From a plasmid: 64,000 nt of DNA. Below are positions 28,050 through 37,859 of this stretch, in pieces. The stretch lies in the sequence record NZ_CP097382.1. One strand, written 5' to 3'. Numbering within the stretch: the stretch's first letter is position 1; every line of letters starts with the position of its first letter. Below the pieces are notes generated by a model. It worked only from the letters and a program-made list of their open reading frames with translations. It ran no database searches and was not told where the DNA came from. The position numbers and the translations under genes are program-made.

Positions 28050-30088
28050 AGATATTATATTTAATATATAAAATGAAGATTGAAAGTTATTATTTTCATT
28101 CATCAATAAATAATTAATCAAAATAATAACCTCTAATTCCGATTGCATCAAAAAGATAAATATTATGGTGATAATAATTAAGGATTTGATTTAAGTAAAA
28201 CTGTTAGTTCTGATCGAGATAGCCTATTGTGATAGGTTATCTCGATCAATCATCAGTTAATGATCGTCGATATCTGAGCTTTAATGTTGTAAATCAATGT
28301 AAATTATGAAATAAATCAAATTCACCCATAAAATCAACTTCAATCATAACAGTACTTGTTATATATTATATAAACATTAGATGCAACTCGTTTAAAACTA
28401 TTGATTATTTAATTTTAATCTAAAAATAATTTCATTCATTACTAGATTAGTATATGTAAAATGTAAACATTCAGAAAACAAATGACGCAAAATATGAGTA
28501 CATTCTAACTAAATATATTTGTAAGCGTCAAATATAATATGAATTCCAATCATTTTTCTCTTATCTAGTTACATTTAGATAATAATTAAAAATTTTTTTT
28601 AATAAACAAATAATTGCACATAAAAATCACTATCGGATAATTAAATTAAGATGGCGATTAAATCTAATAAGAAACAAATAATGATTAAATTAAAGATATA
28701 AAGTCCAGTTTTGGAAAAGAAATAAAAAATAGTTACATTTTGTTACTTTTTGTCTATTTTAACATATTAATCATAAATTATTTATTGGCAATAATTACAT
28801 CAGTATTGTTTAACTCTACCATGTACATTCAATAAAAAACCGGCTGAACGTATAAAGTTCACCAAATTAATTTAAGTGAAATTAATTGATTTAATTGATA
28901 ATTAATTATTTTGAAGCTCATGAAAATCGAGTAATCAAACAACTGTTAAGTGATTGAGTTATAAATTCTGTATTCATTTTAATATATTGCTAGCACACTA
29001 AGCACACTAATCAATAAGAAAAATTTATGTTTTTTTTCGTGCTTCTGTCTACTTAAGCACTGTTGATATGTCATCGATTTGAATTAGGGTGGTATATCAA
29101 TTAGTGATTAATCTATCTAAATAATTATCGCCCCCAAAATATACAAATCATTCAATAATGATAGTGACTAGTTCTGGTGTGGTAAATAGACAGGCATTGG
29201 TATAATGACATTATAAAATGATAACCAAGACCGCAATTGCATAATTTTACATTATCAGCGTAAATTTATTACCTCATTACGAATGAATTACTTACATAAG
29301 TACGAAAAAGTTCGATAAGACGGGAATATTGAGAGGGCTTTTAAAGTAGTGTCCTACTACGGCAAACAACCCCAACAAATTTTGTAAGAAGCCACTTTTA
29401 TGCTCTCAAGTTGCCTAAAATACGACTGCTCGTTAATGTTCTAAAAAGCACTGAGCTTGGTATGAAAGTTGAATTGCTAGAGGATAAATAAAGGATACAG
29501 CCTAGATATTGACAGCAATTTTTTGCTTTTGTTACGTATGTTCTCATATCCGGACGCCTTAAAAGATTGTTCATTTAGTTAAATCTTAATTGGCTGTGGC
29601 TACCGTCCTATTTTAGTCAGAATAATCTATATGCCTAAATCGGCATACAATCGATTTTAAGCATCTTTTTTATATATTCATCCAATCACATTGCATACCC
29701 TAATAAAGTCACTCTAAATCAATTCTGCACAGCCTATTTTTTGATCAATTCTTTTTTTTATCATTATTGCGCTTTACCGTCATTCTCCGCAAATGAGGCA
29801 TTTCGCTTATTTTCCCTTATTTAGTGTGATCGTGATGAAGATCTTCACTATATCTTGTTTATTTGAATGATTAATATTATCCGTGTTATGTAACTTATTG
29901 CGGTTTAAGGGAAAAAACGCAATAATACCTAAATTCAGCAGAGGTAAAAATCGGCCCTAAAAGGTGAAAGGATCCGATGGTCGTCATGCGCGAGTGCGCG
30001 ATTTTTTGTTACCGCGTTATATTTAGTTTTAGTCAATGATAATATTTAAAAGTAATTATTAGTATGGTGATTATTAAGGTGATGTATT
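28050..30088. other. 2-kb ORF-free, extremely AT-rich tract
   Basis: No ORF of 60 aa or more appears in any frame. The tract lies between the truncated usher and the recombinase gene. Confidence 0.8.
29763..29926. promoter_or_regulatory. candidate recombinase-associated switch: 9-bp perfect inverted repeats ATTATTGCG / CGCAATAAT flanking ~146 bp
   Basis: ATTATTGCG at 29763-29771 and CGCAATAAT at 29918-29926, plus a direct copy TTATTGCG at 29896-29903. The element lies about 160 bp upstream of the tyrosine recombinase gene. Confidence 0.3.
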
Positions 30089-30814
30089 ATGTCTACTTTT
30101 TTTCCTGTCAATCCTGAAAGTGGTAAATCAATTTTACAGCGACAATCTCAAGCTCTCTTACAAAATGGTCATTTAGAGCGTGCACGACAATTACGAAATT
30201 TGGCGATAGCGGCTGAATTAGATTGCCCAAAATATTTACTGGCACCAGAAGTAAACCAGCTTTTGCAATTTATTCCCGATCTGCATCAGCGAACGCTGAT
30301 TGATACGTTATGGAATACGGGAGCCCGTATTCATGAAGCGTTGGCATTAACCAAAGGGGATTTTTATCTCGATGAAGAAACCCCATTTGTGGTGTTGCGA
30401 ACACTTAAGCAACGAGAAATACAGACAAAGTCGAAGGAAATTAGAGTCAAGGCGCGTCCTAAACGGATTGTTGCACTCTTCGATCCCCAGTATGTGCAAT
30501 TGATGAAAAGTTACTTTGCGACGATGCGGCTGAAGAATCAAAGCCAGATTTGGCCAATCCAAAGTGATAATACGGTTAGAAATTGGTTACGCTCTGCGGT
30601 TGAACAAGCAGAAGCGAATGGTGTTTCCTATGTTGTTAACCCGATCACCTGTAAAACCTTCCGACACAGCTTTGCGATGCACCTTATTTTTAATGGGGTG
30701 CCCATGAAAGTGATCCAAGCGTATCTAGGACACAAAAAATCAAGTTCAACCGACGTTTATACAAAAATTTTTACGCTTGATGCCATGTTACATTTTGATA
30801 TTTCATTTCGCTAA
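30089..30814 (+). CDS. small tyrosine site-specific recombinase (resolvase/ResD-like or FimB-like)
   Basis: 241 aa. The C-terminal box II (TFRHSFAMHLIFNGVPMKVIQAYLGHKKSSSTDVYT) carries the R-H...Y catalytic pattern. Confidence 0.8.
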   Translation: MSTFFPVNPESGKSILQRQSQALLQNGHLERARQLRNLAIAAELDCPKYLLAPEVNQLLQFIPDLHQRTLIDTLWNTGARIHEALALTKGDFYLDEETPFVVLRTLKQREIQTKSKEIRVKARPKRIVALFDPQYVQLMKSYFATMRLKNQSQIWPIQSDNTVRNWLRSAVEQAEANGVSYVVNPITCKTFRHSFAMHLIFNGVPMKVIQAYLGHKKSSSTDVYTKIFTLDAMLHFDISFR

Positions 30815-31269
30815 TGGGATTAAGTGTTCCCATTACTCTACCTGAATTATATTTCTTCCCCCTATATTTATTGAAAAATAGCAGGAAATTTACAGATAAA
30901 AGCGTTAATTATTTTCGAAATTGAATAAATTGCAATTTTATTCGTCTTTTTCTATTTGATAATGATATTCATTAATGCTGTTTTTAGTACAAGATGAGTA
31001 AAAATACTAATTAAGGATAGGGCTGTGTCATTAGTATATTTAATAAAATTTAATTCTCACACTTTTAATTTCATTTGGAATTTAGAATTTAAATTGGTGA
31101 TTTCAGATTGAAATCTTATTTTTATTTTATTTAATATTCTTTAATATCATGGGTTTATGCTATTTTAAAGCTGTGGGGGAAAATAATTAGCAAAAGATTG
31201 TTTACAATACTAAGCTTATGTAGGATTATGCATCCTAATTAAGAATGCTGCATAAGGAGATAAACTGGT

Positions 31270-35889: not shown

Positions 35890-35899
35890 CAAAAGTAAT

Positions 35900-36417
35900 A
35901 AATCCCCCGATTTCTATCCCCATGTTATCAGCCCATTTCAGCAGGGTGTTGGCAGCACAGGCAAACAACTGATTGAGTAACGGCCAGTTGAGATTAAAGG
36001 CAGGCCAGAGTTTATCAGGCATGGTGAAGGTGATGTGCTGCCATTCGCAGTCGGGCAGAATGTGTTGTTGCTCAGCTATCCACTGTTCGGTGGCTTTCAT
36101 ACCACAGGCACTGCAGCCTTTGCTTTTGCAGCTCTGGCAGAAATATTTTGAGTGAGTACAGTCGGGAGAGGCGCAGCAATAACGTCGGATCCCCATGGCA
36201 CTGGTGCCGCAGGCGAGCATGCGCTCAATGACCAGTTTAGTCCATTCGGGAACAGTAGAGCCGTGTTTGATGAGTAGCCGGTTCCAGCCGTCATCAATCT
36301 GAAAGAGAAGTTTTGCTGGTCGGGGAATATACATACAGCGGATTATAACGGGAGACAGTGACTGAGGACAGCCATTGACTTGCAGAGTCTTAGCTCCGCC
36401 GCAGGCGGCTATTGTTC
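35900..36417 (-). mobile_element. diverged IS91-family fragment (transposase N-terminal ~150 aa) ending in GTTC and abutting IS91 copy A
   Basis: ORF 35864-36334 is about 70% identical to the N-terminus of the 399-aa IS91 transposase (MYIPRPAKLLFQ...CEWQHIT...). Homology stops near the finO stop codon. Confidence 0.75.
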
Positions 36418-37859
36418 ATGGTTAGGAAACTGGATGAACAATTTAACGAGTCTATAAGGGTATGTTTGGTAGCAGAGTCTGTTAAAAGGTCTCTATCGTA
36501 TTTAAACTTAACCATGATAACGCGTAATTGCGCTATTTTTAGCCAAAAACGGGGGTTTTAGATACACTGATCCTAGGCGGCTGTTTGCAGCCATCGTTTT
36601 TTGGCCATTTTATCCCGCCTTTCTGACAGTAAAGTGAGTGCGTGTATGCCTTTTTCCGCACTCATAAACCGCAGTCGGTTTCCACATAAAATACATTGAT
36701 ACGGATCTGTGTTTAAAAAACCTTTGATAAGGGCCGCAAAGCCGGGTTTTTCAGGTACGTTCGGATGTATCATGTCCAATGCGTCATACACTTTAGATAA
36801 TAAACGCCCACGCTTGCGATTGGCTAAAAAACCATAATAGCGGATCATCTTAAAATGCCGCGCGGGGATATGACTGACATAACGTCGTATCATTTCTTCT
36901 TGGGACAAGGTCTGTCGTCGATATTGTTGGCTATGGTGATCATAATAATGATGGATGACTGTGCCACCGCTGTAGTGTTTCAACTGAGACGCCGAGATAG
37001 GCGGACGTTTTAGGTATCGGCCCAGATATTTCACATTATGCCAAGCGCCTCGGGTCTTTTTGGCAAAATGGAGTTTCCAATAACGTTGAAACTGTGCATT
37101 GAGGTAACGACACCAGGTTGGGTAATCGCGAATATGCCCGAAGCCAGGCAATTTATTCGGTTGTAACTGAGCATAATTGTCTCGAAGGAGCCGAATAACG
37201 GCGCTGCGCCAGACTTTCTCGACGTCTTTCTTTTTGAAAAAAATGGGTTTCCAGGTGTCATATTTTGTGAGACCGCCTCGGGTCACCGACAAATGAATAT
37301 GCGGATGTTGATTAAGTTGGCGACCATAAGTATGCAAGGCACAAAAAATACCAATTTCGAGGCCATGACGTCTGGCGTGTTTGAGCATAGCTCGCGTGGC
37401 ACAGCGAAATAGTTGATTAAGTAAGGTCCAGTTGTTGTTAAAAAAAGACCAAAGCAGGTGGGGCATCGTGAGGGTGATGTGTTGCCATTCGCAGTCTGGC
37501 AAAATATGGCGCTGCTGTGCGATCCATTGTTCGGTGCCCTTGAGGCCACAGGCACTGCAGGCTTTGGATTTACAGGTTTGACAAAAGAATCGCGAATGCG
37601 TGCATTCAGGAGAAGAGCAGCAATAGCGGCGAACACCCATCGCGCAGGTGCTACAAGCGAGCATCTTTTCAACACAGAGGAGTTGCCATTCATCGACAGG
37701 GTTGTTATCAATGAAGCGGTTCCATCCGTCATCGTATTGAAATAGCAGTTTAGCGGGTCTGGGAATATACATAGAGCAGAGTATAAAAGACGAGAAGGGA
37801 GTTGCCTAGAAATAGAGCGGCTCAGCCGCGATGCTCACGCCACAGGCGTGCTTATGTTC
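36418..37859 (-). mobile_element. IS91-family insertion sequence, copy A (identical to copy B at 60374-61815)
   Basis: A 399-aa HUH/Y2 rolling-circle transposase (36573-37772) with a zinc-binding Cys cluster and an HPHIH motif. The element is 1442 bp, preceded by GTTC and ending in GTTC. Confidence 0.9.

Follow-up and report, generated by a model that had tools for sequence, protein, structure and literature searches.

We analysed a 64,000-nt stretch of the sequence record NZ_CP097382.1 (hereafter the window), in which a plasmid maintenance and replication block lies between a truncated fimbrial operon and an intact insertion sequence of the IS91 family. From left to right, positions 28,050 to 37,859 hold an AT-rich non-coding tract that follows the usher remnant of the operon, a gene for a tyrosine recombinase (int), the partition genes parA and parB, repA with its leader, a finO-like gene, the remnant of a diverged IS91-family element and the intact IS91. 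A first-pass annotation, made from the sequence alone, had read the block as an IncF-like segment that was captured next to IS91 and replaced the 5' half of the fimbrial operon, with a location of the whole window on a large plasmid as the alternative. Our analysis argues for this alternative: with a probability of roughly 0.9, the window is part of a mosaic Providencia plasmid that is rich in insertion sequences (ISs) and carries several chaperone-usher fimbrial operons, and the segment from 29.6 to 35.9 kb is its own maintenance backbone, not captured DNA.

The conserved plasmid backbone opens on the plus strand, 5' of int, with a stretch of diverged homology to all int-parAB plasmids (29607..30088). 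Homology sets in at 29607-29621 and becomes near-identical from 29711-29770, which moves the start of the block from the annotated 28050 to about 29607-29711. A site-specific break at 29711 was considered and rejected, because the homology fades gradually from about 29770 to about 29607. The int gene (30089..30814, plus strand) encodes a protein of 241 amino acids (aa) and was correctly recognized as a tyrosine recombinase (Pfam Phage_integrase, E = 2e-20); the protein has weak matches to XerD/XerC/IntI-like proteins. It is a backbone gene that is kept 5' of parA in plasmids with unrelated left neighbours, and the small enzyme is probably a multimer-resolution recombinase. A FimB/MrpI-type fimbrial switch for the adjacent operon was rejected as its main role, since the gene is conserved with parAB where the left neighbours are Fic or regulator genes.

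Downstream of int, parA (31270..32487, plus strand) encodes a type Ia partition ATPase with an N-terminal helix-turn-helix (HTH) domain (Pfam HTH_54, E = 1e-44, and AAA_31). It is followed by the gene for a P1-type ParB (32459..33460, plus strand; Pfam ParB PF08775, E = 3.5e-34), which probably starts at 32477 (327 aa), as called in relatives (gene calls in the related contig L007). The best match of the C-terminal half of ParB is to the P1 ParB structures 1zx4 and 2ntz in the Protein Data Bank (PDB; E = 2.5e-49). A Walker ATPase with an N-terminal HTH and an HTH-containing ParB, encoded in one operon, place the system in partition type Ia. The earlier label of a sopA/sopB-type parAB holds for this type and not for orthology to SopA and SopB: ParA scores 62.5 bits with the NCBIfam SopA equivalog, far below the cut-off of 725, ParB reaches a sub-threshold 19 bits with SopB_HTH, and ParB is P1-like. 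The exact ParA protein is found in 87 blocks of our collection, none of them on a contig larger than 200 kb.

A search for a tandem array like the sopC centromere found none. The gap between the parB stop and the antisense-RNA gene described below is only about 65 bp long, so the centromere probably lies elsewhere, possibly in the int-parA spacer. This spacer holds a palindrome, GATTTCAGATTGAAATC (31099..31115), which occurs once in the window against an expectation of 0.06 and is also found in close relatives; we regard it as a candidate ParB or ParA site.

The gene repA (33685..34620, plus strand) encodes a chimeric protein of the IncFII RepA family. The longer frame gives 311 aa, and an alternative start at 33709, as called in relatives, gives 303 aa. 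The match to Pfam IncFII_repA is just over the cut-off (26.2 bits against 22.9, E = 6e-6), the score with NCBIfam RepA_IncFII_LM is 35.6 bits against a cut-off of 70, and no relative was found in the PDB. On these scores, RepA is a distant member of the IncFII_repA family and no IncFII equivalog. The relatives are typed as rep_cluster_1220 by PLSDB/MOB-suite, with no IncF incompatibility or replicon type. An IncFII-type repA, as annotated before, is therefore right at the level of the Pfam family and wrong at the level of the equivalog and of an IncF replicon type. This agrees with the repA genes of pRB151-NDM and p06-1619-NDM, which belong to the IncFII family by Pfam, are less than 51 % identical in nucleotide sequence to typed IncFII repA and have been assigned to no Inc group (PMC5554438).

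Opposite the repA leader, a CopA/Inc-like antisense RNA is predicted on the minus strand (33526..33618), where the Rfam CopA model matches over its full length with 38.7 bits (E = 3.6e-4; gathering score 60). The plus strand of the leader matches the Rfam models PK-repZ and PK-repBA and carries the UUGGCG loop motif of Inc/CopT targets. The antisense RNA is predicted to fold into two stem-loops (z-score -4.4), and a promoter-like TTGAAT-17-TATACT ends at 33625, seven bases 5' of the predicted 5' end of the RNA. Equivalent CopA-like matches lie 5' of repA in three diverged relatives (L002, L018 and L019), and the main stem-loop with its CGCCAA loop is conserved across diverged replicons. An 18-codon leader open reading frame (ORF), MQNKIQLLMCYISAKKDG (33636..33692, plus strand), was read directly from the sequence and is a putative tap/repY-like element. 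It is preceded by GGGAG, and its end lies 8 nt inside the 311-aa repA frame or 16 nt before the 303-aa start; by analogy with IncFII and IncI replicons, the leader ORF may be translationally coupled to repA. Antisense RNA, leader ORF and repA together form the control layout of IncFII and IncI-complex replicons, and would presumably function here in the same way.

The origin is presumed to lie 3' of repA (34621..35262), in the last segment that the window has in common with pRB151-NDM before the Tn3 of that plasmid. The segment contains a 20-nt direct repeat (ATTAACTTCGAAT...) at 34772 and 34801 and is AT-rich at 34800-34859; a DnaA box (with up to one mismatch), tandem iterons and Rfam matches were looked for in it and not found.

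A megablast search of window positions 28000-38000 against PLSDB, the comparison with plasmid databases that had been proposed at the outset, returned 152 plasmids, 70 of them from Providencia; in about 70 Providencia plasmids the order int-parA-parB-repA(-finO-IS91) makes up the backbone. Among these, pRB151-NDM (CP017672.1, 108 kb) carries int-parA-(parB)-repA at 95.9 % identity, and the closed 30-kb plasmid pYZLc5-3_30k has the full order int-parA-parB-repA-ProQ/FinO-DUF2913-IS91. Plasmid matches are also present at both ends of the window: positions 1-10046 are 98.3 % identical to a fimbrial operon of pRB151-NDM, and 59-64 kb matches a P. stuartii plasmid. The record CP194437.1 (51,379 bp) is 99.7 % identical to window positions 16097-33684 and ends one base before the repA ATG. 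It runs from window position 33685 (the repA ATG) round to 33684, so that its position 1 is this repA; closed plasmid records conventionally begin at repA. It contains the usher remnant, the AT-rich tract, int-parAB and the fimbrial operon at 42-50 kb, together with a thiamine pyrophosphate (TPP)-dependent enzyme and a transporter, the TrlF-like gene and a lyase/malic-enzyme pair. The junction of usher, AT-rich tract and int recurs in at least seven independent assemblies. Five proteins were looked up in exact form (ParA, adhesin, FinO, TPP enzyme and lyase), and none is found on a contig larger than 200 kb.

These findings support the plasmid alternative and contradict a capture into host DNA: the block is a conserved Providencia plasmid backbone, and its junctions recur in a 51-kb record that begins at repA. 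As the block lies on closed-plasmid relatives, the outcome that the first-pass annotation itself had set against a capture, it is a native replicon. In short, it is an ordinary, already catalogued plasmid backbone, and its features belong to known plasmid biology.

A part of this backbone with a different ancestry lies at its right end. Positions 29711-34439 are 98.6 % identical at the nucleotide level to pRB151-type plasmids, with 100 % over 33400-34439, and identity is about 80 % over 34440-35262. Positions 34423-36417 (plus strand), which comprise the repA 3' end, the origin region, finO and the IS91 remnant, are identical to F-like conjugative Providencia contigs (0 mismatches in 1,995 bp with L019 and L020). 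The crossover interval is 34423-34439, repA codons 246-252, and the other boundary of the patch is the intact IS91. The alignments show a segment swapped in from an F-like conjugative Providencia plasmid through one crossover in these codons; the predicted RepA is chimeric, with the first ~250 codons of pRB151 type and the last ~60, together with the origin region, from the conjugative plasmid. In the F-like contigs L018-L025 the gene context is traD-traI-repA-finO-IS91 remnant. Up to 35384, L007 shows 100 % identity to the window and so shares the recombinant. Beyond finO and the IS91 remnant, the contigs L018-L023 (~12384-15532) contain a gene for an OLD-family ATPase/TOPRIM protein and, after it, one for a UvrD-type helicase, a layout similar to that of a Gabija-like defence pair.

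The GC content is 0.481 over 34450-36417 and 0.459 in the intact IS91 against 0.378 for the whole window, and the rise begins at the repA 3' end. The repA-finO-IS91 segment is indeed GC-richer, as had been observed, and coincides with a true recombinant patch. It fails as evidence for a capture, because the homologous origin region of pRB151-NDM is equally GC-rich (0.467); the composition reflects the replicon family and does not point to capture or to foreignness to a chromosome.

The finO-like gene (35326..35889, plus strand) was confirmed. It encodes a FinO/ProQ-domain protein of 187 aa (Pfam ProQ, PF04352, E = 9e-16, 58 bits against a cut-off of 27), which scores 96 bits with the NCBIfam FinO subfamily (cut-off 136). 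The exact protein is found only on F-like conjugative (tra-bearing) contigs. The gene is truncated in L007 and absent from pRB151-NDM, so the backbone does not need it. No FinP and no tra region were found in the window, and the CopA-like RNA lies 1.7 kb 5' of finO. FopA of pCol1B9 binds Inc RNA and speeds the pairing of Inc with repZ (PMC7491321), and a second study reports that FinO of pSLT acts also on the copy-number sRNA of another plasmid (PMC8136791). By analogy, the FinO-domain protein, encoded about 700 bp 3' of repA, might chaperone the CopA/Inc-like antisense RNA and tune copy number, rather than or besides acting in conjugation; we consider this doubtful. If it did, the repeated loss or truncation of finO beside IS91 in relatives would mark copy-number variants.

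To the left of the backbone lies the truncated fimbrial operon, with its genes on the minus strand. The last gene of the operon encodes an HTH_3 (MrpJ-like) regulator (25731..26036; Pfam HTH_3, E = 2e-15), whose HTH counterpart at the end of the intact operons described below is about 70 % identical in aa sequence. Next to it lies the gene for a putative tip adhesin or fimbrial protein of 375 aa (26097..27224), whose homologues (50-73 % identity) always stand directly after an usher and are named fimbrial protein by some sources; searches of Pfam and NCBIfam gave no match for it. Both genes had been annotated downstream of an usher cut at 28047 with its 3' third left, and all three assignments proved correct. 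The usher remnant is a pseudogene in three ORF pieces (27236..28034, ORF pieces to 28047) that match Pfam Usher positions 386-549 and PapC_C. It is frameshifted, and the gene calls of at least seven independent assemblies break it up in the same way; since several assemblies call the same split, it is probably true decay rather than a read error. A run of C residues lies at 27860-27875, where the remnant shifts frame. The tract beside the usher remnant is AT-rich, as stated before, with a GC content of 0.266 over 28048-29710, and contains neither an ORF of at least 60 aa nor an Rfam match.

Intact homologous operons were found via the adhesin homologues on three metagenome-run contigs (L037, L038 and L039). 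The intact operon has nine genes, for a 183-aa subunit, a chaperone, proteins of 193 and 180 aa, two chaperones, an 887-aa usher, the adhesin and the HTH regulator, with about 1.7 kb of non-coding DNA ahead of the first gene. Window positions 28053-29303, in minus orientation, are collinear with L037 1920-3239 (64 % identity, 1,343 bp, 429 bits), the non-coding DNA immediately 5' of the first gene of the intact operon, and the homology is present in L038 and L039 too. In control alignments, the best of 40 shuffles of the tract scored 46.8 bits and the window's other AT-rich spacers scored 34-41 bits, which shows that the alignment is not an artefact of AT composition. From 28034 downward, the window is 79 % identical to L037, starting at L037 position 9193 or about usher codon 622. 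A three-way alignment of the window with the upstream DNA and the usher of L037 places the deletion joint at 28035..28052. About 5.95 kb (L037 3240-9192) are missing from the operon in the window, from about 120 bp before the first gene to about usher codon 622; the rest of the usher gene, the adhesin gene and the regulator gene are all that remain.

Because the AT-rich tract is homologous to and collinear with the upstream DNA of the intact operon, this is an internal deletion in which nothing was replaced. The claim that the block took the place of the 5' half of the operon is refuted by the same alignment: the AT-rich tract is native non-coding DNA of the operon itself. The comparison with L037 shows that the left operon always faced away from the backbone, and that the loss of about 5.95 kb fused its AT-rich upstream DNA to the usher 3' third. 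A search of the plasmid database gave no close match to the usher remnant and the AT-rich tract, and an adhesin-based locus search of genome contigs gave no relatives.

A second fimbrial remnant lies to the right of IS91. It consists of an HTH regulator gene and a fimbrial-subunit pseudogene (38354..39298, minus strand; Pfam HTH_3 and Fimbrial), the start of another operon, and is an inverted paralogue of 42196-43170. Positions 38322-39216 align in inverted orientation with 42293-43203, the HTH regulator and first subunit of the operon at 42.2-50.7 kb, with 84.9 % nucleotide and 89-93 % aa identity; the duplicated subunit gene carries an in-frame stop. The idea that usher and adhesin on the left and the HTH, fimbrial and x genes on the right of IS91 are halves of one split operon was rejected. 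L037-L039 are without a counterpart of x or of the right-hand subunit, the AT-rich tract is the left operon's own upstream DNA, and the right remnant is a paralogue of the start of the 42.2-kb operon.

The right end of the block is formed by two IS91-family elements in the same orientation. The older one is a diverged remnant (~35900..36417, minus strand; Pfam Zn_Tnp_IS91) that retains the terIS end and the first 145 tnpA codons; its 156-aa ORF with the zinc-binding domain shows 68 % identity with the transposase of the intact element across 145 aa. On the plus strand its 3' end reads ...TATTGTTC at 36417, and this terminus (...GGCGGCTATTGTTC) parallels the terIS of the intact element (...GGCGTGCTTATGTTC). 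A remnant ending in the same GTTC is already present in the F-like contigs L018-L025, with other DNA after it. The intact element, copy 1 (36418..37859, minus strand, 1,442 bp), directly abuts the remnant, in agreement with the initial description. Its tnpA (36573-37772; NCBIfam transpos_IS91, 302 bits, cut-off 125) encodes a Y2 HUH transposase with an N-terminal Zn-binding domain (Pfam Y2_Tnp and Zn_Tnp_IS91), which assigns it to the IS91 family.

In IS91-family elements, terIS lies 5' of tnpA and ends in GTTC in IS801 and IS1294, oriIS lies 3' of tnpA beside the target tetranucleotide, and GTTC and GTCC are documented targets; in one-ended transposition, termination at terIS fails and DNA beyond terIS is carried along (PMC13181058). 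The elements in the window have these distinct ends, with a terIS of the IS801/IS1294 type ending in GTTC 5' of tnpA and oriIS 3' of it. Both intact copies are preceded by GTTC and have the plus-strand end ...GCTTATGTTC 5' of tnpA; the end of the remnant is ...GCTATTGTTC. In copy 1, oriIS lies at 36418 beside the GTTC target, which is supplied by the terIS of the remnant, and terIS lies at 37859. As tnpA is on the minus strand, oriIS faces the replicon and terIS faces away, so that read-through would mobilise the DNA to the right of 37859 and not the block. For the intact element as for the remnant, the replicon block lies on the oriIS side, not beyond a terIS. At the left edge, where a surrogate termination site would be expected, 28035-28052 is the internal deletion joint of the fimbrial operon. 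One-ended transposition by IS91, the proposed mechanism of the capture, is contradicted by this geometry.

A second copy of the element, 100 % identical to the first, lies at 60374..61815 (minus strand) in a gene for a TrlF-family AAA-like ATPase, 3' of GTTC. NCBIfam TrlF_fam_ATP matches lie on both of its flanks. The empty site is exact in three relatives, CP194437.1 (L026, L031) and L027, with no target duplication, and the uninterrupted site is held by CP194437.1 and JAYWKT010000039.1. Judged by these empty sites, copy 2 is a recent simple insertion of the kind typical for the IS91 family, and a cointegrate via the two identical copies was rejected for this reason. By comparison with the relatives, the intact IS91, with its oriIS against the GTTC of the older remnant's terIS, later made a second transposition, into the TrlF-like gene at 60.4 kb. 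The interrupted gene (59096-62969) also has weaker matches to the anti-phage protein Ppl.

At its far end, copy 1 cuts another gene, as had been noted, of which the 5' part remains (37860..38078, minus strand) with a reading frame that runs into the IS; no family match was found for it. The cut is at 37859/37860 and not at 37806, which is the stop of the fused frame inside the IS. The junction of terIS with this flank is identical in L007 and in L011-L013, though their IS sequences differ. On the oriIS side, the element abuts GTTC in the window, GTAC at 35384 in L007 and GTCC in L011 with its diverged IS, all within about 1.1 kb of finO. The IS of L007 is itself recombinant, with divergence over the first ~230 bp and identity from there on. 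In L007 (14112-14340) and L011 (~1700-1790), the ~230 bp beside oriIS are only about 80 % identical and the rest is identical or near-identical. At a common terIS junction, such a contrast suggests that IS variants recombined or that ori ends were swapped.

Several points weigh against the interpretation as a native plasmid replicon with copy control, or limit it. The plasmid location of the window is drawn from near-identical relatives, and we infer the circularity of CP194437.1 from its layout and accession type. The CopA-like and pseudoknot matches are all under the Rfam gathering scores. A search for a P1-type parS (box A/box B pair) found none; neither parS nor the origin was located. The exact 311-aa RepA has no match on record, and a junction pattern of 53 nt has 0 matches in the GTDB representative genomes. 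At the IS91 junction, more than one order of events is possible: the IS abuts 35384 after GTAC in L007, and a diverged IS follows GTCC in L011.

Three other explanations were weighed. The first is compatible with a native backbone and concerns the right junction: one-ended transposition could have brought IS91 together with the DNA from 37860 onwards (the truncated gene, then the fimbrial remnant) into the backbone at the GTTC of the remnant element, in the opposite sense to the capture proposed before. The identical terIS-flank junction in L007 and L011-L013 despite differing IS sequences is in line with this, as are the three tetranucleotides on the oriIS side, of which GTTC and GTCC are documented targets. 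In addition, the L019-type DNA (ATGATTTTGAATGGCTC...) expected after GTTC was not found adjacent. No surrogate termination joint was identified, however, the L007 IS is itself recombinant, and homologous recombination between IS91 copies on different plasmids, or deletions next to oriIS, give the same pattern. We regard this route as possible and rather unlikely. If one-ended transposition took part at all, the right-hand DNA is most likely what it brought into the backbone, a course that is not separable from homologous recombination between IS copies.

A second explanation is that the plasmid was integrated into a chromosome by another route, for example by IS-mediated cointegration, and that the replicon is resident but silent. 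The window is IS-rich (IS66, IS110, IS3, IS1 and IS91), which would provide for such an event. The plasmid matches at both window ends and in the replicon speak against it, with the qualification that no close plasmid match covers the stretches between them, for example 25.6-29.7 kb. The ORFs scanned included no housekeeping genes, and the same junctions recur in relatives on contigs of 20-108 kb, one of which is the 51-kb CP record that begins at repA. Such an integration is very improbable. Least probable of all, and close to dismissed, is the movement of an IncF-like segment by one-ended rolling-circle transposition of IS91 into a chromosome in place of the operon's 5' half: an IS91-family element at the right edge with a truncated gene beyond it, an adjacent segment of distinct composition and ancestry, and a similar proposal by Marquez-Ortiz et al. 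for the repA of p06-1619-NDM (PMC5554438) are outweighed by a terIS that faces away and would carry DNA to the right of 37859, a left edge with no IS91 end or GTTC-type joint and with the operon's own upstream DNA, a stretch from int to the repA 5' part that is collinear and 98.6-100 % identical with the resident backbones of closed plasmids, and the absence of any part on a contig larger than 200 kb.

With a native replicon as the preferred interpretation, the block would work as follows. RepA would initiate replication at an origin just 3' of its gene, as is known for its family, and the CopA/Inc-like RNA would throttle RepA synthesis by pairing with the UUGGCG-loop stem in the repA leader, in which the 18-codon ORF would be coupled to the repA start. 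Type Ia ParA and P1-like ParB would segregate the plasmid copies, and the recombinase probably resolves multimers. The FinO-domain protein would be dispensable and would have arrived with the patch from the conjugative plasmid.

For annotation, this means that the block should be recorded not as a chromosomal capture but as the replicon of a family of fimbriae-bearing Providencia plasmids to which the NDM-1 plasmid pRB151-NDM also belongs. The replicon is chimeric, as the crossover in repA joins a non-conjugative int-parAB backbone to the origin and finO of an F-like conjugative plasmid, and could confuse replicon typing and incompatibility predictions. The DNA just 3' of the origin and finO is a recurrent landing and rearrangement site of IS91-family elements. 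A replicon family without a current Inc assignment can be annotated with a putative CopA/Inc-like copy-control RNA.

The remainder of the window is likewise dense in fimbrial operons and ISs. Clusters of IS fragments at 10128-13198 and 23600-24930 (an IS66 C-terminal fragment, IS110, IS3 and IS1) separate fimbrial and metabolic modules and represent further mosaic joints. The metabolic cargo consists of a class II fumarase/aspartase-type lyase with a malic enzyme and a TPP-dependent enzyme with a Mem_trans transporter (14101-17375 and 54072-56716), and both pairs are also present on the 51-kb relative.

Compared with known systems, the intact IS91 resembles elements of the IS1294/IS801 type in its HUH Y2 transposase with a Zn-binding domain, the lack of terminal inverted repeats and target duplication, a terIS with GTTC at its end and insertion 3' of a GTTC target. 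It differs in being compact, with 1,442 bp, a 399-aa transposase and no orf121. The partition module resembles the type Ia ParA-ParB-parS system of P1, with an HTH_54 N-terminal domain in ParA and a ParB whose C-terminal half matches P1 ParB, and differs from it in that no P1-type parS (box A/box B) was found here.

In comparison with the IncFII plasmids R1/R100 and the IncI-complex plasmid ColIb-P9, the replicon shares a RepA in Pfam IncFII_repA, a predicted CopA-like RNA with a UUGGCG target loop, a short leader ORF that abuts the repA start and an origin presumed 3' of repA. Unlike these, it has no copB-like gene, and its RepA and RNA scores are under the equivalog cut-off and the gathering scores. 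As in FopA/Inc of pCol1B9 and FinO/FinP of F, a FinO-domain protein is encoded beside a rep gene under (here predicted) antisense-RNA control. In contrast to FopA, the protein here scores FinO-like (NCBIfam FinO subfamily, 96 bits); identical copies are found on plasmids with tra genes, in which one would expect FinP/traJ as its target. Unlike in both systems, relatives of the window backbone replicate without a FinO-domain protein.

The F-like contigs (RHRR02000004.1, which is L019, and JAGSRX010000030.1, which is L018) have a homologous CopA-like element and repA upstream, and L019 is identical to the window over 34423-36417, including finO and the remnant ending in GTTC. They differ in that the replicon follows traD-traI and precedes an OLD/UvrD (Gabija-like) gene pair, in the lack of int-parAB, in a repA 5' part that is only about 83-85 % identical, and in having no intact IS91 at GTTC. 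The plasmids of rep_cluster_1220 (pRB151-NDM, pYZLc5-3_30k and p06-1619-NDM) share the order int-parA-parB-repA, some of them with ProQ/FinO-DUF2913-IS91, and carry Trans_reg_C or Fic genes as left neighbours of the backbone where the window has the truncated operon. Relative to pRB151-NDM, the window has a different allele of the origin region from about repA codon 250 on (~80 % identical) and adds finO and the IS91 remnant; with this plasmid it shares both the backbone and the habit of carrying fimbrial operons on a plasmid.

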